Of a stretch of 64,000 bases of DNA, positions 986 through 62,635 are shown one piece after another. The stretch spans positions 3,022 through 67,021 of IMG/VR virus record IMGVR_UViG_2786546122_000004. One strand, given 5' to 3'. The DNA comes from a virus. Each line of letters starts with the position of its first letter. The stretch's first letter is position 1. Under the pieces are notes generated by a model, which ran no database searches, was not told the DNA's origin, and was given only the letters and a program-made list of their open reading frames with translations. Both the position numbers and the translations under genes were made by a program.

Positions 986-1233
986 CGACTCCCCTCCTCT
1001 TTCTTTAATTATTCTTGTCCTTTGCTCAACATATTCATCCCATATAGATCCGTCTATACAATAATTATCTTTCAAACTTTTTAATATTCCTTATAGTCTG
1101 TATCTTCTCCCTTATTGTGTATTTCATTCAAAATCCTCAATAGCTTACCTTCAAGTGTTTCCTTATGTAAATTGAATAAGGTTTCCACTTGTTCTCCACT
1201 AATTTTATTTTTATTCTAAATAAAAGACCGATT

Positions 1234-1911
1234 TTATGTAGTTTTACATGCCAGAAAGACTCTGTTGATTAGCTCAAATACTGAATCCTCACTATCTGGA
1301 TTAAATCTAATTAACTTATAACCTTTTCTTTTTATGTACTCTTCTCTAACCAATTCTTTGTGTTTCGAATAACTTTTATGTCCATGCTCATCACATTCAA
1401 TAGCAACCTTCTCTTCAATGACATAATCAATATAGTAAGTTCCACACTTCACTTGTTCCTCAATACTGAATACGTCTTTAAAAGCTGTACTGATAAACGC
1501 CCCTAACTTTTTCTCTTTTGCTTTATATTCTGCATTACCAATCACTACATCTGTAAATCTTTCTGGTAATTCAAGATGCCCAACGTTTTTCTGAAATTGT
1601 CTTGCGATAATGCTGTTCCGTAAAAGTAATCCTATTCTAAGTAAACCGTATATATTAACTAAGGATAGCCTTCTTACTTTTTTAAATTTGGGCGACTGAA
1701 AAATTGCTGCTTCCTGTTTCAATTTTTTCATTTCAACTGTTCTTATTTCTGAATATTGCTGTATTATTTTCATGTTCCTTTTCAATACTGTCTTAATTGT
1801 ATCTTCAGGGACTTCGAAGTAATCACTTATCATCTGAACAGTGAATTCCTTTGTTGTTAATGACATTTCTATTGATTTAACTTGGTCAAGTATTTGTAGG
1901 TAATTGTCCAT
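1234..1911 (-). CDS. DUF559/Vsr-like endonuclease with N-terminal phage DNA-binding-like region
   Basis: C-terminal EQVKCGTYYIDY...VAIECDEHGH...R...GYKLIRF motif. Confidence 0.75.
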   Translation of the reverse strand: MDNYLQILDQVKSIEMSLTTKEFTVQMISDYFEVPEDTIKTVLKRNMKIIQQYSEIRTVEMKKLKQEAAIFQSPKFKKVRRLSLVNIYGLLRIGLLLRNSIIARQFQKNVGHLELPERFTDVVIGNAEYKAKEKKLGAFISTAFKDVFSIEEQVKCGTYYIDYVIEEKVAIECDEHGHKSYSKHKELVREEYIKRKGYKLIRFNPDSEDSVFELINRVFLACKTT

Positions 1912-1946
1912 CCTCGTCCCCCTTTCTAAATAAAATCAACATTTTA

Positions 1947-2252
1947 TCAATAATAAAACTCCATTAACGCATCTCTTCCTGCTCTGTTCAATAATTCAAT
2001 ATCGAATATTACATCTCTTCCCTTTAATTCGTTGTAATGATAATTAGGGTCATGCTTTTCATTGTAATGAATGAAGGAGACGTTATGAGAAGTATATACG
2101 TCATAACGATTTTTCAAAATAATCAACATTCCATTTATCTCAATTGCTCCGATTGAAACATTGTTTAACATTGTCCTACTGGGTAAAGAATGACGTAGTA
2201 CACTTCTAAGTTCTTCGAATTTTTCACTTCTCTTATAACCATAACTGTTCAT
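1947..2252 (-). CDS. hypothetical phage protein
   Basis: ORF track; RBS AAGGAG upstream. Confidence 0.7.
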   Translation of the reverse strand: MNSYGYKRSEKFEELRSVLRHSLPSRTMLNNVSIGAIEINGMLIILKNRYDVYTSHNVSFIHYNEKHDPNYHYNELKGRDVIFDIELLNRAGRDALMEFYY

Positions 2253-2448
2253 ATTGATCGTGCTCCTTTTCTGTATAAAATTAGAATTTTATTTTCATTA
2301 AATTGAATAACCGCCTCATGCAACACACAAAACAAAAATGGCTGTAATAGACAGGAAAGCTAGTATAAAAATACAACCGTATAAAAACCCATTTAAAAAC
2401 CCATGTGTATACTCTTTTAATTTAATCACCTTCTTTTTAAATTAATGT

Positions 2449-2477
2449 GTATATTTACAAAACATCTCCACACAATA
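2449..2477 (+). promoter_or_regulatory. SigG-type forespore promoter of sspC
   Basis: GTATA-17bp-CACAATA resembles SigG consensus GNATR-17/18-CATWHTA. Confidence 0.6.
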
Positions 2478-2521
2478 CAATTGAACAAGCTTGTTTACAT
2501 ACAACTTTAGGAGATGATTAT

Positions 2522-2734
2522 ATGGCTCAACAAAACAGATCAAACAACAGCAATGAATTACTTGTGCCTCAAGCTGCTGGTGCCCTTGAACAAATGAAGT
2601 ATGAAATTGCTTCTGAGTTCGGTGTGAACTTAGGGCCTGAGACAACTAGCCGAGCAAACGGTTCAGTAGGTGGAGAAATCACAAAACGTTTAGTTCGCCT
2701 AGCCCAACAAAGCATGAATGGCCAATTTCATTAA
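2522..2734 (+). CDS. sspC: alpha/beta-type small acid-soluble spore protein
   Basis: MAQQNRS...[36 protein letters not shown]...GQFH; RBS AGGAGA. Confidence 0.95.
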
Positions 2735-2739
2735 TGTAT

Positions 2740-2765
2740 GAGGGGATTACTCCCCTCTCTTTTTA
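2740..2765 (+). terminator. intrinsic terminator after sspC
   Basis: GAGGGGA-ttac-TCCCCTC followed by T tract. Confidence 0.8.
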
Positions 2766-2814
2766 TGCTCCTCTTCCAAATCCATAAGTACTACTGGCAT
2801 TGTATTCACCTCCT

Positions 2815-3003
2815 TTAGTGAACAAATGTACTTCGTCTAAGCAGCTCGTCTAAAACGATTTGAAGTTTTCTTCTTTGGTCTTTTATGTATGCATTGTTAT
2901 CGGTACGCAATCCATCATTAATTCTATTTTGTATGTCTGTTTTCAGTCTCTCTAAGCTTTCAATTGGTAATTTTTCTAGACTAACTTTATATGATTGATT
3001 CAT
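2815..3003 (-). CDS. hypothetical phage protein (62 aa)
   Basis: ORF track, start reassigned to MNQSY. Confidence 0.6.
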   Translation of the reverse strand: MNQSYKVSLEKLPIESLERLKTDIQNRINDGLRTDNNAYIKDQRRKLQIVLDELLRRSTFVH

Positions 3004-3004
3004 T

Positions 3005-3127
3005 TTAATAGCCCCCAGCAAAAACGAGTGAAATTATCAATAACCAAAAGACTGCTCCAGAAACAGCAAGAAAGCTTTTTGCAATACTCATAAACTCTTG
3101 AAAATCATTCTTCAACGACTCTTTCAC
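3005..3127 (-). CDS. small hydrophobic membrane peptide (40 aa)
   Basis: GTG with RBS AAGGTG; C-terminal TM FLAVSGAVFWLLIISLVFAGG. Confidence 0.5.
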   Translation of the reverse strand: MKESLKNDFQEFMSIAKSFLAVSGAVFWLLIISLVFAGGY

Positions 3128-3160
3128 TGCATCACCTTCTCTTTAAAATACAGATTTCAT

Positions 3161-3226
3161 TTAGATTATATCCAGCGCTCCATCACAGTAAGGACATTTG
3201 CCATTATCCTCTTCGCATGTACACAT
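3161..3226 (-). CDS. 21-aa Cys-rich micropeptide
   Basis: RBS GGAGGTG; MCTCEEDNGKCPYCDGALDII. Confidence 0.4.
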   Translation of the reverse strand: MCTCEEDNGKCPYCDGALDII

Positions 3227-3249
3227 ATATTTCACCTCCGACGTCCTCC

Positions 3250-3907: not shown

Positions 3908-4011
3908 AAAAAACTCCCCATTCTGAATAAAATATTAGTTTTATCAAAATGCATATTTTTTGTTTTTGTATTTTAAATAAAAAACTGCTATTTCATCAAC
4001 CTCTTGTTATT

Positions 4012-4040
4012 ATATTATACATATTTTTTATTTTTGTCTA
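4012..4040 (-). promoter_or_regulatory. SPBRE-type SigA promoter
   Basis: TAGACA-AAAATAAAAAATATGTA-TAATAT on minus strand. Confidence 0.65.
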
Positions 4041-6855: not shown

Positions 6856-7180
6856 TTAATCACCCACCTATTTTAATTATGTTCGATCATCTTCAAGAAA
6901 TTAGACGCTGCCTTTTTATATCTCAGATCTTTTTCATACTCAGCAACTTGTCTCATATGCTCAATAAATTCATCTTCAAGTCCTCGTAACGAAGAAATCC
7001 AAAACAAAGACCGTTCCTATACAGCATGTCATCATATTTTGCTTGTAAAGCTCTTTCTTTGTTGTTAATGATCTCTTTCCTCCTTATTGATTTAGATAAA
7101 AGTATTCTTTTATTGAAATCAGATCTCTCCTTTTCCCTATTTATGTTAAAATGAGTTAAAAAGGAAATTGTGGTGTATTT

Positions 7181-8317: not shown

Positions 8318-8367
8318 TGTTATGTAATATAGCTCCTTTTAATTTAAGTTTGTTTAAAATTACCCTT

Positions 8368-8610
8368 TTATCGTAATTCCTTTAGTAACTCATCAAGTTC
8401 ATTAGGCTTAAAACCAACACTTCGTTTTACTTCTTCTCCTTGATCATTCAGCAAAATGGTTGCCGGTACTCCCATGACACCAAATCTTGCTGCTACTTCT
8501 GGTTCCTGTGTAACGTCCACTGTCTCAAAATGAATATCTGCTTGTTCTAAGTAATTGGAAACCATTTTACATGGATTGCAATTAGGCTGCTCTAATTTAA
8601 TCAATCTCAC
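8368..8610 (-). CDS. yosR: thioredoxin/NrdH-like redoxin
   Basis: CNPC active site, GVPA; GTG start gives 80 aa. Confidence 0.9.
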
Positions 8611-14182: not shown

Positions 14183-14232
14183 TTTACATCTCCTTATTTT
14201 TTAATTTTATTTTGAATAAAGCTGTGATTTTA

Positions 14233-14433
14233 TCAAGATTTTTTGTTTGGCCATCCTTCGCCAAGAAGCTTTTTAGCCCCTTCAACATCTGTGAATCTCT
14301 CAATCTTGTGTCTATAATCATCGATCCACCGGTAAACACATACAGCATTTTCTTCTACTTTCATGACAGTGTATTGCTGCATAGGATCTTCTAAAAGGTG
14401 AAGCTTCTGATCTTTATAAAATCCTGGAATCAT
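14233..14433 (-). CDS. yosK: YosK-like hypothetical protein
   Basis: 66 aa; synteny. Confidence 0.6.
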   Translation of the reverse strand: MIPGFYKDQKLHLLEDPMQQYTVMKVEENAVCVYRWIDDYRHKIERFTDVEGAKKLLGEGWPNKKS

Positions 14434-15512: not shown

Positions 15513-15548
15513 GGGCTTTCCTCCTCTTTCTTTAAAATCATCCTTTTA

Positions 15549-15839
15549 TTAAAAACCCCATTTGATCAAGAGTCCCATTCTTTTTTCACCATCATCTGAA
15601 GGTTCTATATTAATAATTTCCACCATGTATCCTTCTTTTTGTACAAGTTTTTTTAGTCGGATTAGGCTTTCTTCAGTTATAGCGCCTTCACTTTCCCCCA
15701 CAGAAAAGCCCACTGTTGTTTCTTCCTTACCTCCGTTTGCAGCAACAAATATAGCATTATTTAAAAAATTCAGTTCACTTTCTAATTCTTCTTTATGTTT
15801 TCTTTCCATAATTTCCTGTACTGCATATGCTTTTCTCAT
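15549..15839 (-). CDS. hypothetical phage protein
   Basis: ORF track; RBS AGGAGAG. Confidence 0.7.
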   Translation of the reverse strand: MRKAYAVQEIMERKHKEELESELNFLNNAIFVAANGGKEETTVGFSVGESEGAITEESLIRLKKLVQKEGYMVEIINIEPSDDGEKRMGLLIKWGF

Positions 15840-15895
15840 TATTTATACACTCTCCTATTTTATGTTTGTTTAAAATAAAACTTTTATTTAGATCT

Positions 15896-16651: not shown

Positions 16652-16810
16652 TATCTTCCCTCATTGATGATCTTCTTTAATGCTTTTAGAAGCATATTTA
16701 GTGATTTCTTGTCACCCATTTCATCCCGATTGACTTCAATAAAGTGAACTGCTGACGTTAATTTATCCTGCATTTCAGTTGCTCCTTTCACGATAAAAAT
16801 TGAATTTTAT

Positions 16811-16990
16811 TTAGATAATATTGATAATTAATAAAACTAAACTGATTAAGAATGACATTCCAGCTAGAACTAATAACCCTAAAGCGATTTGAGGTTTTAT
16901 TCTCCTTTTCGATCCATATGTATCTAATGATACAAGTCCAATCAACAAAAGACCGATGAAATCAAGAATATTAATTGCAAATTGCACCAT
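16811..16990 (-). CDS. yosB: YosB-like two-TM membrane protein (59 aa)
   Basis: Manual: MVQFAINILDFIGLLLIGLVSLD...GLLVLAGMSFLISLVLLIINII; RBS GAGGAG. Confidence 0.55.
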   Translation of the reverse strand: MVQFAINILDFIGLLLIGLVSLDTYGSKRRIKPQIALGLLVLAGMSFLISLVLLIINII

Positions 16991-17237: not shown

Positions 17238-17271
17238 ACAACATCTCTCCATTCTCGATAAAAGGAATATT

Positions 17272-17484
17272 TTATCCTCTATTTTTGTATTTGTTATTTA
17301 GTCCTAAATGTTCTAATGTCTTCTTAACACTTAAATTACTGCATTCATTTTTCACTCTCTCGGAATAACCCTTTGCACAGCCTTCACAACAATTGAAGTC
17401 TTCATAAGTTTTTTCATCGCTGATCCTAAGACAAATTGTTTTTCCACTTATGTACTCTTTACAGATGTCACATATATGATTCAT
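17272..17484 (-). CDS. yorZ: YorZ-like Cys-rich small protein
   Basis: 70 aa; CDIC...CCEGC; synteny. Confidence 0.6.
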   Translation of the reverse strand: MNHICDICKEYISGKTICLRISDEKTYEDFNCCEGCAKGYSERVKNECSNLSVKKTLEHLGLNNKYKNRG

Positions 17485-17514: not shown

Positions 17515-17543
17515 ATTATATACATATTATTTGTATTTGTCTA
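17515..17543 (-). promoter_or_regulatory. SPBRE-type SigA promoter
   Basis: TAGACA-AATACAAATAATATGTA-TATAAT. Confidence 0.8.
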
Positions 17544-18599: not shown

Positions 18600-18642
18600 T
18601 CAATACACTCCTCTTATTTTACATTTGTTTAAAAGACAAACT

Positions 18643-19962
18643 TTATTCAGATTCTTTATTAACGTATGTATGTATTAATTCCTTGAATATTGACTCAAGC
18701 ACAGTTACAGTAATTGAATTACCGGCTTGCTTATATAATTGTGAGTTACTTATTCCCGCAGCAAAAGCTTTTTCAAAATCTTCGTCATCAAAAGCCTGTA
18801 GCCTAAAGCACTCTAACGGTGTTAATCTTCTAATTCTGTATTTTGGATATTCTCCAACCGCTACCCCGTGTCTGTCAATTGTGTTTACTGTAAATGCTGG
18901 TTCACCGTCATCTTTAAATCTTCTTCCATTTTGTCGCTTCTCCCCCCTTTCTGGGGTTAATACTGGCCTTACCTCAACAACTGCATTTTGTTTTTGGTTC
19001 CTATTCAATCCTCTCCAGTCAGAAGCAGAAAGCGTATGAGATACAGCTAGTTCTCGTCCAAGCCCGCTTTTTCTGGAGTACTCAACTGCAATTTTCAGTC
19101 CCTCTCCTTTATTAGTGGTAATTGTGGGGCTTAATCCAGATGAATTATAAACATTTCCATTCATTCCATTACCAGAGGGATTAATATTACCTACTTGCTC
19201 AACAGTAAGATTTTCATTAAGTCGACTTGTAGACAGCTCTTTGATCAAACTGTTTGTTTTATCTTCATTCAAGTAGTACTTTTCATCAACGTATTCTTCT
19301 AATAAATCTTTTAGCCTCTTCGTAGCAGCCGATTGAGCTGTCCATCTAAAATTAAAGCTTTTAATATCTAATTCTGCCAATCTCTGTTTCCCTTTTTGAA
19401 GTATATCCTTTCTTTTAAAATCCAAAGACCATTCTTCATTTTTAATTAAATCTTCTCTAATTCCAATTATGTAAAGTCGCTCCCTATTTTGTGGAACATT
19501 AAAGAATTTTGAATTAAGCAGCTCTAGGTCAATTCTGTACCCAACTTCACTGAAAGCTTCAGCCATAACATTTAATGTATTTCCTTTATCATGGTTGATC
19601 AACCCTTTAACATTTTCAAAAACAAAAAACTTTGGTTGCTTTTCCTTAAGAGTCTCAACGTATTGAAAAAACAATGTCCCTCTTGTATCTTCAAATCCCT
19701 TTCGATGGCCGGCTACACTAAAGCTTTGACAAGGAGATCCTCCAACTAAAAGATCAAATTCAGGTAGTTTTTTCTTATCAATCTTGCTTACATCTCCAAA
19801 ATTTAATTGCTCATCAACGTTGTGAATTGCACAAAAAGATTTGACGGCATATTTATCAATCTCACTAAAACCAACCAGCTCATAACCAACCCCAATGTTT
19901 CTTAGTGCAGCTTCAAATGCACCGATCCCACTAAAAAGACTCATTACACGTAGTTTACCCAA
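18643..19962 (-). CDS. mtbP: multispecific DNA (cytosine-5) methyltransferase, M.SPR type
   Basis: FSGIG, GSPCQ, ENV, QNRER, YKQAGNS; 439 aa; three TRD-like segments (PTIT, HTLS, FTVN). Confidence 0.95.
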   Translation of the reverse strand: MGKLRVMSLFSGIGAFEAALRNIGVGYELVGFSEIDKYAVKSFCAIHNVDEQLNFGDVSKIDKKKLPEFDLLVGGSPCQSFSVAGHRKGFEDTRGTLFFQYVETLKEKQPKFFVFENVKGLINHDKGNTLNVMAEAFSEVGYRIDLELLNSKFFNVPQNRERLYIIGIREDLIKNEEWSLDFKRKDILQKGKQRLAELDIKSFNFRWTAQSAATKRLKDLLEEYVDEKYYLNEDKTNSLIKELSTSRLNENLTVEQVGNINPSGNGMNGNVYNSSGLSPTITTNKGEGLKIAVEYSRKSGLGRELAVSHTLSASDWRGLNRNQKQNAVVEVRPVLTPERGEKRQNGRRFKDDGEPAFTVNTIDRHGVAVGEYPKYRIRRLTPLECFRLQAFDDEDFEKAFAAGISNSQLYKQAGNSITVTVLESIFKELIHTYVNKESE

Positions 19963-19991: not shown

Positions 19992-20019
19992 TCTAAATAA
20001 AATTGATCTTTTATTTAGA
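19992..20019. repeat. 28-bp gene-junction palindrome (perfect copy)
   Basis: TCTAAATAAAA-TTGATC-TTTTATTTAGA. Confidence 0.85.
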
Positions 20020-22362: not shown

Positions 22363-23085
22363 TTACCAGCTTACTCTTACATTTTTACGACCAAATGCAT
22401 TTGCTTCTTGCTCACTGTCCATCAGAATATCAATACGATTGTTTTTAATATCTCCTCCTGTATCTATTGCATATGCTTGAAAGCTATTCCCTTCATATGA
22501 AACTTGCACTAATGAATACAAAGGAATTATTTCTGGATCAACAGCGATTATTCTTTTTCCATTGTAATAGGATGTGTTTGATACATCATAGCCGGTTTTT
22601 GTTTTCCCTGTGCACCCTGTAGAACAAAACGCTGTGTAAGCAGTGGCAATCACTTCATGACTCTTCACTGCCTTTACATTAGTACTTTTTGAAGCAGATT
22701 TATCTTCACTTCTCTTTTTATTGGTTTTTTGCACTTTTTTTGTCTTTGTATGTTTTGCTGCTTTTTTATTTTCTTCTGTTAGATATGTAATCGTCGCATT
22801 AAGATACTTTTTTCTACTTTCAGCCTGCTTTTCTTCCTCACTCTTTAGCCTGGGAAGGATTCTTGGAACGTCAATTTCATGAATTAGTTTTTGGGTCACC
22901 TCTTTTTTATTTAGATAAAATGACTCTTTTATTGAGACTTGATTGTCCTGATGTGTATACAAGTTTTTAGCGCTATATACGAGCCCTACTCCTAACAAAC
23001 CAATTGTAGCAAAAAGTGTCATTTTGTTAATTCTATGATATACATATTTTTTGTGTTTGTCTATAAGTTTTTTGAAAATTTTCAT
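22363..23085 (-). CDS. yorM: membrane-anchored 3D-domain cell-wall-binding/hydrolase protein
   Basis: ATAYTA, IIAVDPEIIPL, AIDTGGDIKNNRIDI; N-terminal TM. Confidence 0.85.
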   Translation of the reverse strand: MKIFKKLIDKHKKYVYHRINKMTLFATIGLLGVGLVYSAKNLYTHQDNQVSIKESFYLNKKEVTQKLIHEIDVPRILPRLKSEEEKQAESRKKYLNATITYLTEENKKAAKHTKTKKVQKTNKKRSEDKSASKSTNVKAVKSHEVIATAYTAFCSTGCTGKTKTGYDVSNTSYYNGKRIIAVDPEIIPLYSLVQVSYEGNSFQAYAIDTGGDIKNNRIDILMDSEQEANAFGRKNVRVSW

Positions 23086-23107
23086 CTCTCCTATCATCAG
23101 CTAAGAT

Positions 23108-34355: not shown

Positions 34356-34384
34356 ATTATATACATATTTTTTATCTTTGTCTA
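34356..34384 (-). promoter_or_regulatory. SPBRE-type SigA promoter of replication operon
   Basis: TAGACA-AAGATAAAAAATATGTA-TATAAT. Confidence 0.8.
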
Positions 34385-34496
34385 TATGTTTTATAAACTT
34401 TTATATTTTTTATTTTTGTGTTTCATTCGCAATCTTTCTAATTCGAATAAAATTATCATTTTATTTAAATTTAAAAGCCCCAATAAGGGACTCTTG

Positions 34497-36730: not shown

Positions 36731-36758
36731 TCTGGTTAAAATATCGTTTTTAACCAGA
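36731..36758. repeat. 28-bp gene-junction palindrome (perfect copy)
   Basis: TCTGGTTAAAA-TATCGT-TTTTAACCAGA. Confidence 0.8.
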
Positions 36759-37800: not shown

Positions 37801-37832
37801 TTCAATCCCCCATTTCTAATAAAATCTCTGTT

Positions 37833-38054
37833 TTATCTAGATCTTCTAATTTTATTTTTATCCAACAAATCAATTATGTAAGTCTCATACATGTCATCCC
37901 AATAAGGATTTGTTCTTGCTATGTACTTCTTTACTCTCCCATTCTCCTCAATCTTAAAGGTTTGCCCCTTTTGAATATCAGTGAACTTTTTCTTCCTCCA
38001 GATTCCCCTGATCAACACTTCAACTTCTTTAACCTCTACTGTTTGCTGCATCAC
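37833..38054 (-). CDS. yoqX: YoqX-like protein
   Basis: 73 aa; synteny. Confidence 0.65.
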
Positions 38055-39678: not shown

Positions 39679-39917
39679 TCTCTCCGTTACATAACTCCTT
39701 AGAGCCTAGCCATTAAAAATCAAATGAAAATTTAGTACATGGATCAATTAGTTTTCGTTACCCCCTTTAATTAAAATAAATAGTTTATTTTAAATGACTT
39801 TTTTCTCTAAACCTTTTTAAATTTCCAAAATTCATTTCACCTTTATTACTGCAAGCAGGTTGTCATACGCTTGCCATATAAAAGAGACTGGACATTTTTG
39901 TCTCGGAGGTGAAATAA

Positions 39918-40353: not shown

Positions 40354-40384
40354 CTGTTACCTCCCTATAAAAACTATCTTTTAT

Positions 40385-40675
40385 CTAGACTTGTTCAGCT
40401 TGCCTAATAGTATCTAACAACTCTTTCTTCTTGAAATATGTCTTTTCCAAACGATCTACTTCCTTTTGCAATTCAGTAGCAGCATCATACTTCAGAATCC
40501 ATTCTCCTACTCCACATACTTCTCTTTGTTCTTTCTCAAACGTTTTTATGTGACGGCCTTCGAACCAAACTCTTACTCTTGTACCGTTTTCAAATTCATT
40601 ATTAAAAGCAGCTGCTTTCTCAGTTCCCGCATAAATACATTTATACTTGCTGTCATCGACTACATAAGTGTTCAT
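40385..40675 (-). CDS. hypothetical phage protein
   Basis: ORF track; RBS AAGGAG. Confidence 0.7.
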
Positions 40676-41395: not shown

Positions 41396-41583
41396 TTGAA
41401 TACCCTCCACTTATTTTATTTTTATTCTTTATCCGTTTATATGTATTCCATCCGCAGCTGTCAAAAATGCTTATGTCCGCTCCAAGGTGCCATTTAAACC
41501 AAACTAAGTTAAACCAGGCGATTTCAAATACGTATTTGATGAATCCTATCCTATTGCCCTCCATTCTGCATAAAGTAATCCTT

Positions 41584-41976
41584 TTAAACAAAAATCAATT
41601 CAGGCTCTTTATCCTCTTCATATCGTTTGTAGCCAATAAAATATTCCTCATCCTTTTTATAAATAAACGGTGAAATCCACTCAATAAAACTCTCAATCTC
41701 ATTATCATAGTTTTTTAGATTGCATCTAATTGTCACATAGCGCCCACCTACAAGAGTATCGTTTACAATTTCGCTGTGAGTTTTTCCATCAAAATAATAG
41801 CTATCAGATTGAAGCATCCATTTCCATCTACTTCCTCCCGAAAATAGTTTATGATCTGGCAGCTCATCTGGATGCTCATCTCGTTGACCGCTCATAAACT
41901 CCAACGTTTCAATAATGTGACTTGGTGTTTCCTTAATTAGCTCAAAAGCACATACCAATTCTGTATACATTCCCAT
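41584..41976 (-). CDS. hypothetical phage protein
   Basis: ORF track; RBS GAGGGAG. Confidence 0.7.
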   Translation of the reverse strand: MGMYTELVCAFELIKETPSHIIETLEFMSGQRDEHPDELPDHKLFSGGSRWKWMLQSDSYYFDGKTHSEIVNDTLVGGRYVTIRCNLKNYDNEIESFIEWISPFIYKKDEEYFIGYKRYEEDKEPELIFV

Positions 41977-42025
41977 TAATACAACTCCCTCTCTTTAAAA
42001 CAGTCTTTTTATTCAGTCCATGAGT

Positions 42026-42220
42026 TTACTCGTATTCAACAACAACCTCCTCATTGTCTACAAACAGATCATTCCCATTTGATAAGTGTACCCAGAAAGC
42101 TTCCTCAGGTTCTTCTCTATAGTCATAAATTGCGACCACCTTTGCATTTGATTCTTTGCTTATCGGTTTCCCGACAGTTATTTTTGTATTCTCTTCAGGT
42201 AAAATAATTGATTTAATCAT
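42026..42220 (-). CDS. yoqI: YoqI-like protein
   Basis: 64 aa; synteny. Confidence 0.55.
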   Translation of the reverse strand: MIKSIILPEENTKITVGKPISKESNAKVVAIYDYREEPEEAFWVHLSNGNDLFVDNEEVVVEYE

Positions 42221-42268
42221 TTATATCAATCCAATCCAAGTTTGTTTTACACTGTTGCCCCAAGACTT

Positions 42269-42721
42269 TCAATAACAGGATTCAATATTTTTCGTTAATA
42301 TACTCGGCCCCAACTTTTGCGTGCTAGAATTTGACAGACGCACTTGCACTTTAACATTCTTCATTTCGGCCGAAATTGTGTCAATTCTTCCCGCCCAACT
42401 AGGACTCTCTTCCTCAGGAGTAGGATAAAGTTTAAACCGCCAACTAATCTCACCTGGTTTAGTAGCAAATCCTTCGTAACTGTCGTAATTTCCAAAAGAA
42501 GAAGGTGCAGGAAGATGGACAGCAAGAATGCTTATATTGGTTCTGGCAGCACTCGGTGGGTTCAATTGCACCTTATAGATTAACGCTACGCCTTTAGCAT
42601 TTTTAAGATTTTTATCTACCGGCTCCAGTATTACACTGCAAGGCATTGGACTGGCGTTTGTTTGAATGGGATAGGCAACAATAATACTTAATAAGGATAA
42701 AACTAAAATAAATCGTTTCAT
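42269..42721 (-). CDS. yoqH: YoqH-like secreted protein
   Basis: 150 aa; signal peptide. Confidence 0.7.
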   Translation of the reverse strand: MKRFILVLSLLSIIVAYPIQTNASPMPCSVILEPVDKNLKNAKGVALIYKVQLNPPSAARTNISILAVHLPAPSSFGNYDSYEGFATKPGEISWRFKLYPTPEEESPSWAGRIDTISAEMKNVKVQVRLSNSSTQKLGPSILTKNIESCY

Positions 42722-42803
42722 TGAAAGTTCCTCACAATTTTTTTAGTTAATTTTCCTTATTTCTGGATTGATTATTCATTTGTATTTGATTAAATCTTCA
42801 ATT

Positions 42804-43061
42804 TTATTTTGATTTAATCTCAACAATAAGACTGTCAGGATAGTTCTTCAAATCAAGTGCGTTTACATGACAGTGACCTACATATCCTTCTTTATCAACG
42901 TAATTATAATAGAACTTTTCCCCATTATTAATGATAACTTCACCCTGATGTGTATACTCCATCTCTGATCCCTTGTACCATGTTACTTTAACTTTTGTGC
43001 CAGGTATGATTTTATTTAAATCAAATATTGTTATTTCTTTTAGCAAAATCATTTCCTCCAT
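42804..43061 (-). CDS. yoqG: YoqG-like protein
   Basis: 85 aa; synteny. Confidence 0.55.
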   Translation of the reverse strand: MEEMILLKEITIFDLNKIIPGTKVKVTWYKGSEMEYTHQGEVIINNGEKFYYNYVDKEGYVGHCHVNALDLKNYPDSLIVEIKSK

Positions 43062-43671: not shown

Positions 43672-43788
43672 ATTACAGAATAGCTCAGGTCATCGAGAGG
43701 ACTCTTGGTGACCTTCTATAATGTTTTATTCACCCATTTCCCTTTTCCACTCTCTATAAAATTTTACTTTTATCTAAAGTTTTCAAAT

Positions 43789-44544: not shown

Positions 44545-44617
44545 TAAATACCTCCGTCTCATTTAATTTAAAATGCATCTTTTATTTAGACTATGATCTC
44601 AATACTTCTCAGCAAGG

Positions 44618-46259: not shown

Positions 46260-46342
46260 ATATCCCCCTTATCTGAATCTCGATAAAACTTACATTTTAT
46301 CCACTAATTTTAATTTTGTTACCTTAGTGAAAATTACACAAT

Positions 46343-46537: not shown

Positions 46538-46615
46538 AGCTCCCTTTACCATCTCCTATATACATATTATTTGTATTTGAATAAACTATAACCCATCATT
46601 TAATATCTGTCAATT

Positions 46616-47729: not shown

Positions 47730-48707
47730 TTAAATGGTCGTCTCTTTTAGACCTAGTTCTTCTGCGTAATATTTATTAACTTCTTCCTCATTAATATAAT
47801 CTTGCATTGAATAAACTGCTCGATATTTGGATTTCACTCTTAAATTAAAGTCATCTATAATCTGATACCTTACAGAGTTATCAATAACCCCTTTTTCTTT
47901 ATAAAGCTGATATGCTCTATACAAATGACCAGATCTAACAATAGTATTTGGTGTTAAAAAGTTAATTTTAAAGAACTCAGATATATCAGTAATTAGATTA
48001 GTTATGACAAATTTACTTGCTTGGCCGTCTCCTTTGTTGGACGTTCTTTTTGTTTTAACTACATAATCATTTTCAACTAAAAAGACTTCTTTTGTTTGGC
48101 CTTTTGCCTTCCCATTCTTTAATTTATATTTAGTTTCCTGAGCTGCATTTAAGGCAATAACAAGACATTCACTACTAACTTTTAGTTTTCGTTCACCGTG
48201 CTTTGAATCATAGAGGGTTAAAACGTTACCATTTAGCATCGCATCCTCAACTTGCTTTTTGGTTAAACTTAGCAATTCAGAATGAGCTAAACCTGAAACC
48301 CCTTCAAACAACAGCCTTAATACAGCCTTTGATTGATAGTTAACTAATTGATTTTCCATTTCCTCTAATTCACTATAAGTAATATATAATTTTTTGTCTC
48401 CGAGACATTCATAAAGCTCTTCTTCAGAAATAGTTCTTGCCAAATTGGTTAATCCTTTACTTAACTTATATGAAATTGCCCAATCAATATACAATGACAA
48501 TAATGCTAAGGTTCTTCGAACACTACCAATAGTGGTTTGATCGAATGATCGTATAAGTTCTAAAATTTGCATTGATGTGAAATCATAAATGTCTTTATTA
48601 TATAAAGTCTCAGTAATCTCTGCTTTTGCAAAAATAGGCCTCATCTGCATAACCATACCCTCAGATAAGGTATCTAAATATTTTTCCTTAATCTCATTAT
48701 TGAACAT
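47730..48707 (-). CDS. yopR: MrpR/SroF master repressor (inactive tyrosine-recombinase fold)
   Basis: 325 aa; integrase-like but GLAHSE replaces G.R.SE and no HxxR. Confidence 0.9.
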   Translation of the reverse strand: MFNNEIKEKYLDTLSEGMVMQMRPIFAKAEITETLYNKDIYDFTSMQILELIRSFDQTTIGSVRRTLALLSLYIDWAISYKLSKGLTNLARTISEEELYECLGDKKLYITYSELEEMENQLVNYQSKAVLRLLFEGVSGLAHSELLSLTKKQVEDAMLNGNVLTLYDSKHGERKLKVSSECLVIALNAAQETKYKLKNGKAKGQTKEVFLVENDYVVKTKRTSNKGDGQASKFVITNLITDISEFFKINFLTPNTIVRSGHLYRAYQLYKEKGVIDNSVRYQIIDDFNLRVKSKYRAVYSMQDYINEEEVNKYYAEELGLKETTI

Positions 48708-48730: not shown

Positions 48731-50113
48731 TTACTCGTCTATTTTTAAATTGTTAAAGAAATTCCATATCTTTTGTGGTGATTTAGCATTTCCATTCTTG
48801 TCTACTACACCTAATTCATCCCACAATTTATTTTTCTTACTAAAGTCTATAGAGTTTAAAACATCGGTAATTTTACTTTCTAAATCATCTAGACTTACTC
48901 CATCTAACTGCAACTTCTTAGCTAGTACAACGTAGCCGTTAAAGAACAAATAGTTGTTCACAAAACTTCTCTTTCTTTCTTTTGCTATATCACCTAAGAA
49001 CTCATCCACATATTGTGTAGCTAAAGCATCAAAGAAAGATGTAAGGTATCTTGCAGTTTTTAAAATATCTGCCTGAGTTGAAAAATCTTTTTTAGAATAA
49101 CTTCTTTCAATTGCCTTTTTGAAGTCAGAAAAAGTTATAAGTAAGTTCTGATTCTGATTTATCCAGTCTCCATTTGTCTTTATATAATCACCAATTATGC
49201 TATTATCCTGAATGAACTTAACAATTTTATTAGAATAAACATTTTGACTCATCTCAGCTACTTTAGATTTCTTCACTGGATTTATTGTATTTTGTTGCCC
49301 AAAATGCTCTCTCGCCCTTTTTTGAGTGTAGTTATAGATGTCCACTTTAAAGGTTTCTTCAAACAAATGATCTAACTCAGGATGCTGTCTTATAGCCATA
49401 GTAATGCCTATTAGCCGGTGATACCCGTCTAAAACGTCTAAAATGGTGTCTTCAGTCACTGTAAGCGACATAGTGTCGTCATCATATTTTAATTCTTCGC
49501 CACAACTTGCGCTTCCAACACGTGCATTAAACGTAAAAACTGATTTAATTAATTTCCCATCTAAGAACAGTTCCTTTATTTCTTCAACCGATTGTTTATT
49601 GAGCTGCGGTACAGGTATCTCAATATCTGAGCCCTCTAGTTTTTTCGTTTTGTTCGTTCTTTGAGCATTAGGATTATAGTGCAATAACTTATTTTCAAAT
49701 AGCATAAACAACTCTTTAGCAGTGATGGGGAAGAAATAATTATCATCCGAATACTTTACAACTTGTTTGAATGTATACGGAAATTTTATATCTTCCTCCA
49801 CAGATCCTTCCCATAACGTTTCAATTTCTCTCATATCCGTTTCTGTGAAGTAATTTCGTGGATTAAACCTTTCACTTTCAAGAACTGAGTATAGGGACTT
49901 GGCTAAAAAGTACATATATTCTTTAGAAATTTCGACTTCTGGATTTTCTATATCATAAATTAATTTTTGTGTTGTCCCTGGAGTAATTTTATTTTTAGCC
50001 ATCTCTAATTGAATATCGTTAATAAAAGATCTTATGTGTTTATTTTTCGAGATAGCATCTTTCATTTCTGAAAGCAGTTTCTCATTTGCAGACTGATCAA
50101 AGATCACTGTCAT
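48731..50113 (-). CDS. yopQ: SroE, DndB/DGQHR-like protein
   Basis: 460 aa; VLDGYHR motif. Confidence 0.85.
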   Translation of the reverse strand: MTVIFDQSANEKLLSEMKDAISKNKHIRSFINDIQLEMAKNKITPGTTQKLIYDIENPEVEISKEYMYFLAKSLYSVLESERFNPRNYFTETDMREIETLWEGSVEEDIKFPYTFKQVVKYSDDNYFFPITAKELFMLFENKLLHYNPNAQRTNKTKKLEGSDIEIPVPQLNKQSVEEIKELFLDGKLIKSVFTFNARVGSASCGEELKYDDDTMSLTVTEDTILDVLDGYHRLIGITMAIRQHPELDHLFEETFKVDIYNYTQKRAREHFGQQNTINPVKKSKVAEMSQNVYSNKIVKFIQDNSIIGDYIKTNGDWINQNQNLLITFSDFKKAIERSYSKKDFSTQADILKTARYLTSFFDALATQYVDEFLGDIAKERKRSFVNNYLFFNGYVVLAKKLQLDGVSLDDLESKITDVLNSIDFSKKNKLWDELGVVDKNGNAKSPQKIWNFFNNLKIDE

Positions 50114-50219: not shown

Positions 50220-51296
50220 TTATCGCTCATTTACATGCTTTATAAACTTTTTTAATGTAACAAGATCAGCGTTTTCAAAAAAACTAATAAAATCCTCTTG
50301 GGTTGCTTCATATAGTGGATTTAAATCGATTTTTTCATCCATTGTTACACCAGCAGAGTTCGCTATGTTAATCTTTCTGCTCATATATCTCTCTGTTGTT
50401 AATGTGTTTTTATGATTTCCTTGTTCTTTTGCTGCAAGTAAATCGTGACCAGAATTCTCATAGACATAGTCAATTCCTACACCCTTAAATGAGTGTAAGA
50501 CTAATTCTCTTTCAGGAGGTATTCCTAACCTTTTTTTCGACCTTTTTAAGGAGTGTCGTAAAGATTGTTCCGAAAGCCCCTGAAAAACCAATTCAGTTTC
50601 GCTGTCATCCTCTTCCTTCAGCTGCAACAATTCCTCATAAAATACCTGGTTAATGCCTGTAGACACAACCTGAGATCCTTTATCAATAACTGTTACTATA
50701 TAATGGCCTGTACTTTCATCAAGCTGTATGTCTTTCCATCTTACTCGCAAAATCGCACTTACACGAAAAGAAGTTCTGATGGCGAATTTAACAAACAGCT
50801 TTTTCATTAAAGGTTTCTGTCTTTCATTTATATACATATCCTGAGCGATTCTTTCGGCTTCTGTCTGGGTTGTTTTATCCCAGTTTTTAGTTACTGTTTT
50901 AAGCCTTTCGACAGTATTAAACACCGACAAGTCAATATAGTCCTTATAATCATGCTCCAAATATGTATAGAGCATCTTCAGGGAGGTCATTTTTCTGTTA
51001 ATACTATTATTAACTAATCCCTTTTCCTGAAGATACTTCACATAGTTGCTTAATTCGCTTTTACTTACAACTAAATCATCGGGAACTAAACTTTTGACAT
51101 CTTTACCTTTAATCACACTAAAGAACTGCTTAATATCCCCTTCATAATTCTTTCTGGTGTTCGACACCCTTCTAGTTGATGAAGGCATCATATAGTTAGA
51201 ATTCCCTGAGCTACTTCTTATATCTTTATTGATTAAAAAGCCCTCGATATCATCGTAAACCGCATAATTTTTTAATTGTTTAACTTTATTTTGCAT
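50220..51296 (-). CDS. yopP: SroD tyrosine-recombinase-family protein
   Basis: 358 aa; SFRVSA, DKG, LHSFK, GNH, ERY. Confidence 0.88.
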   Translation of the reverse strand: MQNKVKQLKNYAVYDDIEGFLINKDIRSSSGNSNYMMPSSTRRVSNTRKNYEGDIKQFFSVIKGKDVKSLVPDDLVVSKSELSNYVKYLQEKGLVNNSINRKMTSLKMLYTYLEHDYKDYIDLSVFNTVERLKTVTKNWDKTTQTEAERIAQDMYINERQKPLMKKLFVKFAIRTSFRVSAILRVRWKDIQLDESTGHYIVTVIDKGSQVVSTGINQVFYEELLQLKEEDDSETELVFQGLSEQSLRHSLKRSKKRLGIPPERELVLHSFKGVGIDYVYENSGHDLLAAKEQGNHKNTLTTERYMSRKINIANSAGVTMDEKIDLNPLYEATQEDFISFFENADLVTLKKFIKHVNER

Positions 51297-52067: not shown

Positions 52068-52114
52068 ACCACCAACCTCCTATATACATATTTTTTATCT
52101 TTTGCATCTATAGC

Positions 52115-53766: not shown

Positions 53767-53847
53767 TTATTTTATACATATTTTTCGTATTTGAGTTCTC
53801 TTTAAAATTCCTATTTTATTCAAAAGGCATCTGAAATTGAAAGATGC

Positions 53848-54407: not shown

Positions 54408-54470
54408 ACAATGTCTCTCCTCTTTTTCTTAATCAAATAAAACAATTATTTTACATAGACACAAAGAGGA

Positions 54471-59073: not shown

Positions 59074-59118
59074 TGGTCTCCTCCAATTATTTAAATTTGG
59101 ATAAAAGAATGATTTTAT

Positions 59119-59355
59119 TTAAACACCTTGAGTATAGTCTGATTTGTCAATAGTTACGAGATGTTCAATATCATCATAGTGCTCTGCATTCATAACCTCA
59201 TAAATATCAATTCCAAGATTTTTCTTCAAATTGCTTTTAGCATGTAAAACAATCATATTATCTGCATTAATGCCATTAGGCATTTGTGGTACACCCGCAT
59301 CTGTTTTGATTTCTACACCGTTTACATTGAAAGTTACTTTTACTGTATTTTGCAT
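59119..59355 (-). CDS. hypothetical phage protein
   Basis: ORF track; RBS AGGAGAGG. Confidence 0.7.
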   Translation of the reverse strand: MQNTVKVTFNVNGVEIKTDAGVPQMPNGINADNMIVLHAKSNLKKNLGIDIYEVMNAEHYDDIEHLVTIDKSDYTQGV

Positions 59356-59449
59356 TATAACCTCTCCTATTCCCTATAAAAGTACGATTTTATGTAGACC
59401 CAGAAAACTTGTAATTCCTTCCTATGCTTGTAACTTTAGTATACCATTT

Positions 59450-60297: not shown

Positions 60298-60681
60298 TTA
60301 CTTAGCTGCTTTCTTTGCCTTGTTTTGCAGAAAAACTGAATCCCAGATCCAAAAGATTACAGCAAATGAAATGCTAAATAAGTAAATTTCATATCCCATT
60401 AGAAAGTCTATTGTGGTTTTTGGGTCAGTAGTTATAGCAAAGATTAACCACACTAAGAAGGAAAAGAATATGTATGTAAGCAAATATTTCAGGCTAAACC
60501 TTTTTGAATTGCGATTCAAGAAATATTGAACAGGTGCAGCAAAGATTAAATAGAAGATAAAGAGAATAACACTTATTAATAAGTATGGAATATAGCCATC
60601 ATAATCAATGCCCAAAACATAAACAACAGCAGCTGATAATGCAGACAAGACATGCACAATAAAGATCCTTAAAACTTGCAT
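60298..60681 (-). CDS. UPF0715 family four-TM membrane protein
   Basis: FAAPVQYFLNR..KRFSL.YL, FWIWDS; ATG with RBS GAAAGGGG. Confidence 0.7.
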   Translation of the reverse strand: MQVLRIFIVHVLSALSAAVVYVLGIDYDGYIPYLLISVILFIFYLIFAAPVQYFLNRNSKRFSLKYLLTYIFFSFLVWLIFAITTDPKTTIDFLMGYEIYLFSISFAVIFWIWDSVFLQNKAKKAAK

Positions 60682-60760
60682 GTTTATAACCCCTTTCATG
60701 TTAGAAGCTTCAACATTGTCTAGATCCCTCCTTAAAATCACTTTAAAATCCATGTTTTAT

Positions 60761-61099
60761 TCAGTTATTTAGATTTGGCCTAATTAGATTAGCGATATCT
60801 TTTATATATTCAATAAACTGATTTTGGTCTTGAAGAATACCCAGCTTTTCGTATTCACCGGTAAAAAGCCATTGAGGGGTTTCCCCATTTGTCTGTATCT
60901 CCATGATAAAACTAGTCCCTTTTGTATTAATCTCTTCATCTTCCCCAGTTTCATAATGATATTCAATTAATTTTTTCAAAGAGTGGTTGTCTTTTATTTC
61001 TTTTGTGTAAAAAGTTAACCCTTGATCCTCATATTGCTTAAGTTTAAAGCCGTTATCCAATAAAAATTTAAGGTTGTTTTCATTTAACACTGTCATCAC
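60761..61099 (-). CDS. hypothetical phage protein
   Basis: ORF track. Confidence 0.7.
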   Translation of the reverse strand: MMTVLNENNLKFLLDNGFKLKQYEDQGLTFYTKEIKDNHSLKKLIEYHYETGEDEEINTKGTSFIMEIQTNGETPQWLFTGEYEKLGILQDQNQFIEYIKDIANLIRPNLNN

Positions 61100-61133
61100 T
61101 TAGAACCCCTCTCATTAAAGCTGTAGTAAGTAT

Positions 61134-61439
61134 TTAAATGTCTTCTTCGATTAAATTTTCTTTCAAAAGTTCTAATAGCTTATCAACATATTCTTTTTGA
61201 TCTTCATTGAAGTAAGTGCTAAACAAATCATTCTTTTCAAAGTCATCGAGTTTATCTTTAAGGCTTGAAATCTCATATAGTGTTTCAACTGGCTTCCCCT
61301 CAAAAACAAACTCAACACTTTCATCACCACACAAAGTAATCGTTTCAAGCGCTTCTTTAATGTCTCTATTCCAGTTTTTCAAATAAAACAATTCCATTGA
61401 CACGTCATACGATAGACCAATCGTGTACATGTTTAACAC
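61134..61439 (-). CDS. hypothetical acidic phage protein
   Basis: ORF track; RBS AAGGAG. Confidence 0.65.
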   Translation of the reverse strand: MLNMYTIGLSYDVSMELFYLKNWNRDIKEALETITLCGDESVEFVFEGKPVETLYEISSLKDKLDDFEKNDLFSTYFNEDQKEYVDKLLELLKENLIEEDI

Positions 61440-61505
61440 TCCTTATTCGCTTAGAATTAATGTTTATTGTTTCTTACTAGACTTATTTTGGTTTAAACTG
61501 CTGTT

Positions 61506-61751
61506 TTATTCAGATTTATTATAGAGCTTATAATCTCCTTCGCCATCCTCATGATAAACATCTTTAGAGTCACATTTTTTGCAAATGAAACTACCTTCAT
61601 TGAAGATATTGTCTATACCTGAATCTGAATAGTCTACATCATAAATCTTTCCGTTCCTCGCTCCACCTGTTGTATCGATAAGCTGTTTAGCCGCCACCGA
61701 CAGCTCTAAGTAGAAAAAGCGTTCATTACCGCAATCATTACATTTAGCCAT
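61506..61751 (-). CDS. zinc-ribbon protein
   Basis: CNDC...CKKC; RBS AAGGAGG. Confidence 0.7.
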   Translation of the reverse strand: MAKCNDCGNERFFYLELSVAAKQLIDTTGGARNGKIYDVDYSDSGIDNIFNEGSFICKKCDSKDVYHEDGEGDYKLYNKSE

Positions 61752-61917
61752 TGTTTAACGCCTCCTTATCCCGTTTAAGCTTCCGAATAGTTTCATTCTG
61801 TCTTTCTATAACATTTTCGTAATAGCAGAGCCTTTCTAAAGCGTGCGTAGGATTTTTCTTAATCCATCTCAATCTTTTAACGAGCAGTCTCAGGCTTAAT
61901 TTATCCATTGAAATCAT
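61744..61917 (-). CDS. small basic hypothetical protein (57 aa)
   Basis: Manual: MISMDKLSLRLLVKRLRWIKK...; RBS GAGGTG. Confidence 0.5.
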   Translation of the reverse strand: MISMDKLSLRLLVKRLRWIKKNPTHALERLCYYENVIERQNETIRKLKRDKEALNNG

Positions 61918-61949
61918 TTGATCACCTCTCTATGTATAAAATTGTTGTT

Positions 61950-62231
61950 TTATTCAGTTATTATTTCAGGATTTTTATCTGCTTTGTTTTCGACTTTCCC
62001 TATCCTTACAACCGAGATCAAATCCCCATCCCATTCAATAACACTAGCATAATAGAATAACTGATTGTCTTTTTCATAAAGCTCTGTTCTGATACGTTCA
62101 TACCACTTATGACCAAGGTAAGGATAGTCATATTTGAACTGTCCTTTATATGTAAAACCCATCTGTTCCATTGCTTCGTCAAGTTTACCTACTGGATTAT
62201 CCAACCTTATATCAATCATTATTTCTTCCAT
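61950..62231 (-). CDS. hypothetical phage protein
   Basis: ORF track. Confidence 0.65.
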   Translation of the reverse strand: MEEIMIDIRLDNPVGKLDEAMEQMGFTYKGQFKYDYPYLGHKWYERIRTELYEKDNQLFYYASVIEWDGDLISVVRIGKVENKADKNPEIITE

Positions 62232-62264
62232 CGTGATTCACTCCATTCTGTTTAAATTACTGTT

Positions 62265-62534
62265 TTATTCATCCTTAGAAAATTGTCTATTGAAAAGTTC
62301 AATCGCTCTATCATAGGTTGCTAATTGTGCGAGATGTTTGTCAATATTACTGCCATTTCCTTGCAAGCCATCCGATATATATAATTGCTGATTGTTTTTT
62401 AACTTTGATTCTAAATTATCTAACATGTTACGAATGCTTGAAATTTCATTCTCTAATCGCATTTTAGCCTGTTCTCTTTCTGCTTCAAGTATAACTAGGT
62501 TCCTATTTTCTTTCGTCATATCATTCTCTTTCAT
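62265..62534 (-). CDS. hypothetical protein, paralog of 3638..3907
   Basis: Shared SDGLQGNG motif. Confidence 0.8.
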   Translation of the reverse strand: MKENDMTKENRNLVILEAEREQAKMRLENEISSIRNMLDNLESKLKNNQQLYISDGLQGNGSNIDKHLAQLATYDRAIELFNRQFSKDE

Positions 62535-62635
62535 TTCAATCTCCCCGTTCTGTTTAAAATATGCATTTTATAATGTTTATATTTTTTGCATTTGTTAATT
62601 GTATTATAACCTGATTATCCATAATTATCAACAAT

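Follow-up and report, generated by a model that had tools for sequence, protein, structure and literature searches.

A 28-bp palindrome recurs at gene joints throughout the early (cluster III) region of an SPbeta-like provirus, and its copies appear to mark the sites at which related SPbeta-like phages have swapped genes, where they are strongly enriched. The stretch analyzed, referred to here as the window, comprises 64,000 nucleotides (bases 3022–67021) of the 123,738-bp IMG/VR provirus record IMGVR_UViG_2786546122_000004. Read in gene orientation, the palindrome (hereafter, the element) has the consensus TCTnrATAAAA-N6-TTTTAwnnAGA, in which two inverted 11-bp half-sites (TCTnnATAAAA) enclose a 6-bp center without conserved sequence. 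It is a real and family-wide site, apparently undescribed, with approximately 40 copies per SPbeta-like genome. We tentatively propose that the element is a two-subunit protein recognition site and a preferred crossover joint, and that YopP/SroD, a protein of the phage lysogeny operon, is its likeliest binder and catalyst; that a protein binds, that it is YopP, and that it catalyzes exchange are what we infer from sequence comparisons, and we give the proposal as a whole somewhat less than an even chance of being correct.

SPbeta and phi3T are model phages for arbitrium signaling and for prophage-driven Bacillus genome evolution, and some 40 strictly built sites per genome have seemingly gone unremarked in them. 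The searchable SPbeta reviews and preprints contain no mention of the palindrome; the 1999 SPBc2 genome paper (Lazarevic et al.) lies outside that scope and may mention it. The element also offers a concrete test for YopP/SroD and YopQ/SroE, conserved lysogeny-operon proteins with DNA-binding folds and without known targets. If a recombinase acts at the elements, mosaicism in a large phage family would be partly enzyme guided and not only the outcome of random illegitimate recombination and selection, which is a long-open question in phage evolution. If, alternatively, the elements act as a silencing array, they would supply the second layer of SPbeta repression that has been missing.

A palindrome with fixed spacing is dispersed through the early region

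Segments of the window match SPR, SPbetaL1–L8, phi3T, and SPBc2 as a mosaic at 94–97% identity. The plus strand of the window corresponds to the minus strand of SPBc2; therefore, most window genes lie on the minus strand, and element positions (1–28) are given in gene orientation, i.e., along the window minus strand.

A previous sequence-only reading of the window had described about 34 copies of the palindrome, 24 of them with an exact WTAAAA-N6-TTTTAW core where fewer than one would be expected. The enrichment was borne out (mean of 0.61 cores in 100 dinucleotide-preserving shuffles), but the actual number of exact cores is 28, which was reached in 0 of the 100 shuffles. Matches to the 28-bp consensus with up to three mismatches numbered 19, against 0.02 expected. 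A weight matrix was built from the exact copies and a score of at least 11 was counted as a copy; by this measure the window holds 37, with a clear gap in scores below approximately 11. The late-gene remainder of the provirus (60 kb) holds 7. The two copies singled out as perfect palindromes, 19992–20019 and 36731–36758, are indeed perfect, and the spacer is 6 bp as stated: N6 gave 28 matches in the window and every other spacing from 0 to 12 bp gave 0–1. The claim that the replisome and sro operon contain none was slightly too strong because core matches occur at 30091 (helicase) and 47954 (yopR), but both are inside open reading frames (ORFs) and score low outside the core. A further copy implied at 62251, next to a stop codon at 62265, proved to be degenerate, with TTTAAA as its left core.

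The element fills the gap between stop codon and ribosome-binding site

Placement was analyzed in eight genomes comprising the present provirus, five proviruses from IMG/VR that are related to it, and SPBc2 and phi3T (early half of each), with genes called by our own simple ORF caller. Gaps between co-directional genes hold 175 of the 282 distinct copies; the others occupy convergent, divergent, or opposite-strand gaps. As the sequence-only reading had noticed, one arm overlaps the upstream stop codon and the other lies just before the next ribosome-binding site. The stop codon is inside the 5′ arm in 49% of 201 distinct copies, most often as TAA at element positions 7–9. On the other side, a Shine-Dalgarno (SD)-like pentamer follows the 3′ arm at a median distance of 5 nt and the start codon at a median of 24 nt. 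In effect, the element serves as a standard 28-bp unit that occupies the gap ahead of a gene start, and it would bridge the stop codon (often the TAA of its own 5′ arm) to the next ribosome-binding site. Because it fills this gap, approximately one in three early-region junctions is a standard joint. Some copies are found in 5′ leaders directly downstream of promoters with SPBRE, another dispersed repeat of these phages that is described below.

Each half-site is conserved in sequence, orientation, and spacing

The information content of the element extends over 28 bp; recombinase core sites typically have this span, which would be long for the site of a simple helix-turn-helix dimer. The conserved feature is the sequence of each half-site, not complementarity between the two. 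Arm covariation was absent (280 pairs observed compared with 283 when the 3′ arms were shuffled among copies), and positions 4–5 were paired in only 32–38% of copies. When the 28-mers were folded as RNA, the median energy was −1.3 kcal/mol; 73% were weaker than −3 kcal/mol, and 3 of 45 reached −6 kcal/mol. An RNA or DNA hairpin signal was rejected on the basis of the missing covariation and the weak fold energies.

A constant spacer in homologs, which the sequence-only reading had put forward as a check, was found in all 13 genome sequences compared, including five distant large proviruses and lineages with protein identities of only about 27–30%. Only N6 was enriched, with 8–38 matches per genome, whereas every other spacing from 0 to 12 bp produced 0–5. 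Direct and everted arrangements of the half-site were not enriched, and 19 of 23 half-sites are contained in full elements. Tyrosine-recombinase core sites consist of inverted arms of approximately 11–13 bp around a fixed center of 6–8 bp, and the element has the same plan at 11-6-11. A scan of 2.9 million viral contigs for the exact pattern returned 59 stretches, mostly SPbeta-like contigs, many of them 85–165 kb in length; matches elsewhere were single and at roughly chance level.

SPbeta, phi3T, and this phage all carry the same palindrome, and SPBc2 has roughly 33 copies of it. In the loci that were compared first, the five large distant proviruses showed no similarity to SPbeta at the DNA level; they have approximately 19–29 proteins in common with this provirus, mostly at around 25–55% identity (24–31% for YopP, YopQ, and YopR), and each carries 23–70 N6 copies. 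Their half-sites have drifted by lineage: G001 and G002 have ATGAAA alongside ATAAAA, G004 has GTAAAA and ATCAAA, and G005 (IMGVR_UViG_2879469214_000003) has ATSAAA (ATCAAA, ATGAAA) and GTAAAA with the same N6 spacing, which would make it a useful natural specificity variant for binding tests. The two halves of one copy vary independently in these lineages, and the commonest class in G001 would be an A-C mismatch if read as a hairpin. Independent half-sites, fixed spacing, and lineage drift are together what would be expected of a reader protein that contacts a pair of half-sites on duplex DNA and coevolves with the phage. The strict geometry fits two protein subunits on double-stranded DNA.

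Nine element-like copies, several directly before ribosome-binding sites, were also seen in a 13.9-kb sequence (IMGVR_UViG_3300037467_001292, 26% GC) with no protein similarity to this provirus. These may be chance matches in very AT-rich DNA, or the sequence may be a more distant carrier of the element.

Element junctions coincide with mosaic breakpoints

The sequence-only reading had suggested asking whether gene-content breakpoints map to the element, and they do so to a considerable extent: in blastn comparisons of the window, SPBc2, and phi3T, 35–40% of breakpoints fell within 15 bp of a copy versus 2–3% of random positions. Breakpoints favor gene borders in any case, so gene junctions were compared in the eight genomes. 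A break relative to one or more of the other genomes was found at 221 of the 272 element-bearing junctions (81%) and at 455 of the 1,300 that lack an element (35%). When only co-directional gaps of 35–150 bp were considered, the values were 120 of 137 (88%) with an element and 89 of 209 (43%) without, and each genome was significant alone in this matched-gap test (odds ratios 5–31, one infinite; p = 0.018 to 3e-5). Immediate element-free neighbors of element junctions were broken in 46% of cases compared with 81% for the element junctions themselves. When the same gap filter was applied to three genomes only, the association was weaker and for the most part fell short of significance.

Break offsets are concentrated in two zones, element positions 0–10 and 19–36. 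At several joints, the 5′ flanks are unrelated and identity begins at position 3–7, center included; at others, identity continues through the center and stops in or just past the 3′ arm, and at one, SPBc2 keeps the 5′ arm only. Because crossovers fall in the arms or at arm/center borders, the center travels with either the upstream or the downstream block. Mosaic borders 10–45 bp from an element upset a same-center/different-flank classification with 60-bp flanks. Most events at elements are replacements, not presence/absence differences. In the laboratory-evolved hybrid Hyb2phi3Ts-SPbeta, a crossover lies near the mtbP element and can be placed only within 1.4 kb of perfect identity.

One event shows every mark expected of exchange between two copies. 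A 785-bp two-ORF cassette (window 42018–42784) lies between the elements at 42785 and 41990 and has been lost from a relative with a single hybrid element, the left arm of which is like the upstream copy and the center and right arm of which are those of the downstream copy. Such events are scarce. The elements had been interpreted as recombination joints for single-gene cassettes in the manner of integrons or dif modules; the enrichment at mosaic boundaries supports the joints, but not the mechanism as it was stated. Integron-like excision is not supported because only 2 of 35 clean indels are two ended and no centers match within a genome. The suggested reordering left no trace either, as no sign of inversion or reordering at elements was found, strand switches were not enriched for elements, and opposite-strand blocks were not bracketed by them. 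The proposed likeness to integron attC sites also fell away: attC sites are folded structures of variable sequence and length (approximately 55–140 bp) in which structure is conserved, whereas the element has a fixed 28 bp, invariant arms, and no pairing covariation.

Copies of the element and related features in the window

Coordinates are window positions, and scores are from the weight matrix.

1215–1242: element copy, score 24.3; contains the stop codon of ORF 1234–1911 (minus strand)
1925–1952: element copy, score 23.4
2270–2297: element copy, score 22.3
3138–3165: element copy, score 19.6; SPBc2 retains only the gene-orientation 5′ arm at the same spot
3922–3949: element copy in a 5′ leader, score 25.7; 66 bp downstream of SPBRE
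7091–7118: element copy, score 26.3
8349–8376: element copy, score 21.2
14211–14238: element copy, score 20.6; homology breakpoint versus SPBc2
15527–15554: element copy, score 20.6; overlapped by a weaker copy at 15544–15571, score 14.2
15865–15892: element copy, score 24.7
16788–16815: element copy, score 24.6
17253–17280: element copy, score 22.7; SPBc2 homology ends inside
18624–18651: element copy, score 19.7
19992–20019: perfect element copy, 0 mismatches; SPBc2 homology starts inside
22910–22937: element copy in the leader of the yorM homolog, score 28.4; downstream of SPBRE at 23039
30086–30113: core match inside the helicase ORF, probably chance, score 14.0
34442–34469: element copy, score 23.1
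36731–36758: perfect element copy; the only strongly folding copy, −11.4 kcal/mol
37814–37841: element copy, score 21.0; breakpoint
39766–39793: weaker element copy, score 14.6; adjoins a 405-bp indel versus SPBc2
40362–40389: element copy, score 22.6; breakpoint
41565–41592: element copy, score 18.9
41990–42017: element copy, downstream border of the 785-bp cassette, score 19.4
42018–42784, minus strand: two-ORF cassette between two elements, missing from a related provirus (locus L049)
42785–42812: weaker element copy, upstream border of the cassette, score 13.3
43751–43778: element copy, score 25.2
44563–44590: element copy, score 21.0; SPBc2 homology from element position 6
46278–46305: element copy, score 22.3
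47949–47976: core match inside the yopR ORF, probably chance, score 11.2
50220–51296, minus strand: yopP/sroD, tyrosine-recombinase gene (Pfam Phage_integrase, E = 1.8e-10), candidate binder by inference only
53797–53824: element copy, score 23.1; 10 bp from the SPBRE of the aimR promoter
54432–54459: weaker element copy, score 15.0
59096–59123: element copy, score 27.8
59371–59398: element copy, score 24.7; breakpoint
60738–60765: element copy, score 19.2
61487–61514: element copy, score 17.1
61931–61958: element copy, score 21.0
62246–62273: degenerate copy below threshold, by sequence inspection
62549–62576: element copy in a 5′ leader, score 19.3; downstream of SPBRE at 62640

YopP is the best candidate among the DNA-binding proteins of the lysogeny operon

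The lysogeny operon adjoining aimR encodes four proteins with DNA-binding folds. YopO is an Xre-type helix-turn-helix protein. YopP matches Pfam Phage_integrase and a SAM-like N-terminal domain, and a sequence comparison with solved structures gave no match. YopQ/SroE (window 48731–50113, minus strand) matches Pfam DndB (PF14072; ParB/Srx clan) over residues 133–457 with an E value of 3.7e-16, and YopR matches MrpR domains. The yopP, yopQ, and yopR genes are core genes active in lysogens (preprint 10.1101/2021.11.22.469490; PMC10516654), and SroE has been described as a second repressor, the target of which is not known (preprint 10.1101/2025.11.27.690993). SPbeta integrates by means of the serine recombinase SprA (PMC8612738, PMC10516654), and YopP is therefore left without an assigned job.

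Homologs of YopP in all six lineages keep R, K, HxxR (HxxK in SPbeta and G003), H, and Y at 27–33% identity. In the distant lineages, yopP lies outside the element-rich region, which makes element density within 10 kb of YopP homologs on 69 viral contigs a poor guide. YopQ homologs adjoin yopR in four distant lineages, but no DndB-like gene was detected in G003, which is 97% complete and has 21–25 copies of the element, so YopQ is somewhat disfavored as the binder. A protein with a recombinase fold would match an 11-6-11 footprint better than would a small helix-turn-helix dimer. YopP/SroD is conserved in every lineage with elements, keeps its catalytic residues, and is not the integrase; it is the best candidate for the putative protein that binds the element.

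Catalyzed exchange and regulatory explanations

According to the account that we favor, a putative phage-encoded protein would bind the element as two subunits on double-stranded DNA, and the elements would be preferred crossover points in gene exchange between SPbeta-like phages. YopP/SroD would both bind them and catalyze strand exchange there. The canonical tyrosine-recombinase reaction needs matching centers; within one genome, all centers differ, which should prevent any two copies from serving as partners in it. Exchange among them would be rare for this reason, and the scarcity of clean cassette excisions fits that rarity.

Several observations weigh against this account. The compared genomes are relatives of one another, so that the pooled counts cannot be taken as independent, and the genes were called with a simple ORF caller. 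Two thirds of all breakpoints are away from elements. Of the 35 distinct clean indels, 2 were flanked by elements on both sides, 10 on one side only, and 23 on neither; the last group includes events in nrd genes, which are annotated with introns and an intein in SPBc2. No center was duplicated within any of the eight genomes (28–46 copies each), an absence that is not significant given our rough estimate of less than one duplicate per genome by chance. At this divergence, orthologous copies are no better conserved than their flanks, with mismatches of 5.2% in arms, 4–8% in flanks, and 2.7% in centers at only 19 sites. SPbeta-type YopP and that of G003 have HxxK, whereas phi3T and most of the distant homologs have HxxR, and the lysine may weaken catalysis in SPbeta YopP. 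The breakpoint association could also arise without catalysis, from short shared homology together with selection for joints that keep the stop codon and ribosome-binding site. We regard catalyzed exchange and a by-product of a regulatory array as about equally likely sources of the association.

The regulatory explanation is a real possibility, short of probable. It holds that a lysogeny-operon protein (SroE/YopQ, YopO, or a non-catalytic YopP) sits on the ~40 sites as an operator or roadblock array that silences or insulates early genes, much like mycobacteriophage stoperators or the KorB sites of RK2, and that the link to mosaicism is a by-product of short conserved homology and selection for working joints, in the manner of PeSLs in T4-type phages. 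It draws equally on the evidence for a dimer that binds DNA. The distribution of sites in short pre-gene gaps across the early region and their rarity in the late region (37 in 64 kb versus 7 in 60 kb) suit an array of this kind, as do the several copies beside or just downstream of SPBRE promoters and the small number of clean two-ended cassette events. SroE, with its DndB match and its reported role as a second repressor that lacks a known target (preprint 10.1101/2025.11.27.690993), is a candidate reader, but G003 has elements without a DndB-like gene. As regards the other candidate reader, 28 bp is a long footprint for an Xre dimer, and stoperators are asymmetric and oriented with transcription, whereas the element is symmetric. 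A by-product is also difficult to reconcile with the size of the effect: 12–18 conserved bases around an unrelated center make a poor substrate for homologous recombination, yet element junctions are 5–9 times likelier to be broken.

A more elaborate form of catalyzed exchange, which we consider unlikely, is that YopP/SroD acts at the ~40 palindromes with the unique 6-bp center as an address. Copies within a genome would hardly recombine, so that the phage would not scramble itself and its genes would stay in order. Between a co-infecting phage and a resident prophage, copies with the same address would recombine efficiently, swapping everything on one side of the joint, and rare single-strand exchanges between different addresses, finished by replication or a phage Holliday-junction resolvase, would create new joints and hybrid elements.

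A structural site for a host factor is quite improbable. The in-phase A4-N6-T4 tracts could form a bent site that is read by a host nucleoid protein or the Xer recombinases; the consensus is nearly unchanged among phages with 27–55% protein identity, and 11-6-11 is also the geometry of dif. Against this, the half-site variants are lineage specific, which fits a binder that coevolves with the phage, and the exact-pattern matches among viral contigs are mostly in large SPbeta-like or multi-copy contigs. The likeness to B. subtilis dif is only approximately 5–6 of 11 bases per arm.

We regard an RNA-level signal in the polycistronic early transcripts, i.e., a hairpin before the ribosome-binding site for processing, stabilization, or translational control, as very unlikely. 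The constant distances to the SD-like pentamer and start codon and the copies in leaders right after SPBRE promoters would suit such a signal, and deviations from dyad symmetry follow gene direction (position 23 is T in 20 copies and A in 14, and its mirror position 6 is A in 31 of 34). This asymmetry is, however, explained by the stop codon in one arm and a purine-rich SD run-up in the other. The predicted hairpins are unstable, compensatory changes are missing within the genome and in the variant lineages, the arm sequence itself is invariant and not merely its pairing, and copies also occur between convergent and divergent genes. We give least credence to a selfish miniature repeat of the REP or MITE type that colonizes intergenic gaps and does nothing for the phage. 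Many dispersed gap copies, some of them degenerate, might speak for it, but there is no stable hairpin with compensatory changes, no target-site duplication, no RAYT-like or transposase partner that we noticed, and no duplicated center to suggest recent copying, while centers are stable in orthologous copies (2.7% mismatches) and the architecture is kept across very distant lineages.

Comparison with known dispersed sites

The element fails at least one defining feature of each of pdif/dif modules, PeSLs, and stoperators. The pdif modules of Acinetobacter plasmids (PMC6449649, PMC13141974) likewise have many dispersed 28-bp 11-6-11 sites in the accessory part of a replicon; the sites border small gene modules that differ between relatives, and their role is also inferred mainly from comparative genomics. 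They differ in that pdif has distinct XerC and XerD arms, is read by host Xer proteins, and alternates in orientation to bound modules on both sides, whereas the element has the same half-site in both arms, a likely phage-encoded reader, and two-sided borders at only 2 of 35 clean indels. The PeSL cassettes of T4-type phages (PMC2839356, PMC4122927) are also organized around short, conserved repeats that lie between genes in the plastic early part of large phage genomes, and in both systems insertions, deletions, and replacements between close relatives are bordered by the repeat. A PeSL, however, consists of a strong promoter and a terminator hairpin and recombines by homology; the element has no stable fold (median −1.3 kcal/mol) and a strict two-half-site geometry, and with the start codon a median of 24 nt away a promoter would not fit.

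Stoperators of cluster A mycobacteriophages (PMC9283540) resemble the element as dozens of sites in short gaps across a temperate phage genome, the elements being putative binding sites. Stoperators are asymmetric 13-bp sites oriented with transcription and bound by the immunity repressor; in contrast, the element is symmetric and occurs in co-directional, convergent, and divergent gaps. Integron attC sites are also imperfect palindromes at cassette borders that may overlap the end of the upstream gene, but they vary in length and sequence, are recognized as a folded single strand, and depend on an intI/attI platform, none of which applies to the element.

The element is distinct from SPBRE and other nearby motifs

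First described in 1999, SPBRE was identified in 2023 as the operator to which the master repressor MrpR/YopR binds, with a 15-bp motif and ten ChAP-seq peaks; all ten lie at SPBRE promoters and none at the other ~30 palindromes (PMC10516654). We derived the motif de novo as the best shared 15-mer of ten named SPBc2 promoter regions, which gave CAAATAATATGTATA. With up to two mismatches, this 15-mer has 8 copies in the window (0.9 expected):

4016–4030, 17519–17533, 23039–23053, 34360–34374, 46559–46573, 52083–52097, 53773–53787, and 62640–62654, all minus strand: SPBRE copies

These eight copies mark predicted early promoters of this phage. All of them follow gene orientation, and none coincides with a palindrome, although the distance is sometimes only 10–100 bp. 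SPBRE resembles the element as a dispersed early-region repeat of the same phage family with a reader of tyrosine-recombinase fold (PMC10516654; phi3T box in preprint 10.1101/2025.11.27.690993). It differs as an asymmetric CAAATAATATGTATA-like 15-mer at approximately 10 promoters that is read by a monomer and has different versions in SPbeta and phi3T, whereas the palindrome is symmetric, has ~40 copies, and is the same in SPbeta, phi3T, and this phage. The palindrome was therefore rejected as the SPBRE/MrpR operator, which is a different 15-mer at different positions, and as the SroF repressor box of phi3T, which is different again. Two further SPBc2 "palindrome" annotations (77856–77871, upstream of yopM, and 82394–82411, between yopR and yopS) are not copies of the element.

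At the aimR promoter (window 53773–53824), palindrome and SPBRE are 10 bp apart, and in SPBc2 they are 3 bp apart. Because of this proximity, the yopJ-aimR fragments of the published MrpR gel-shift and lacZ-fusion experiments probably carry a palindrome copy as well. The yorM ORF of SPBc2 (110881–111597) contains a palindrome, and the first part of its window homolog (22363–23097, minus strand) contains both SPBRE and a palindrome. The phi3T annotation has a shorter gene; therefore, the true start of yorM is probably downstream of the element.

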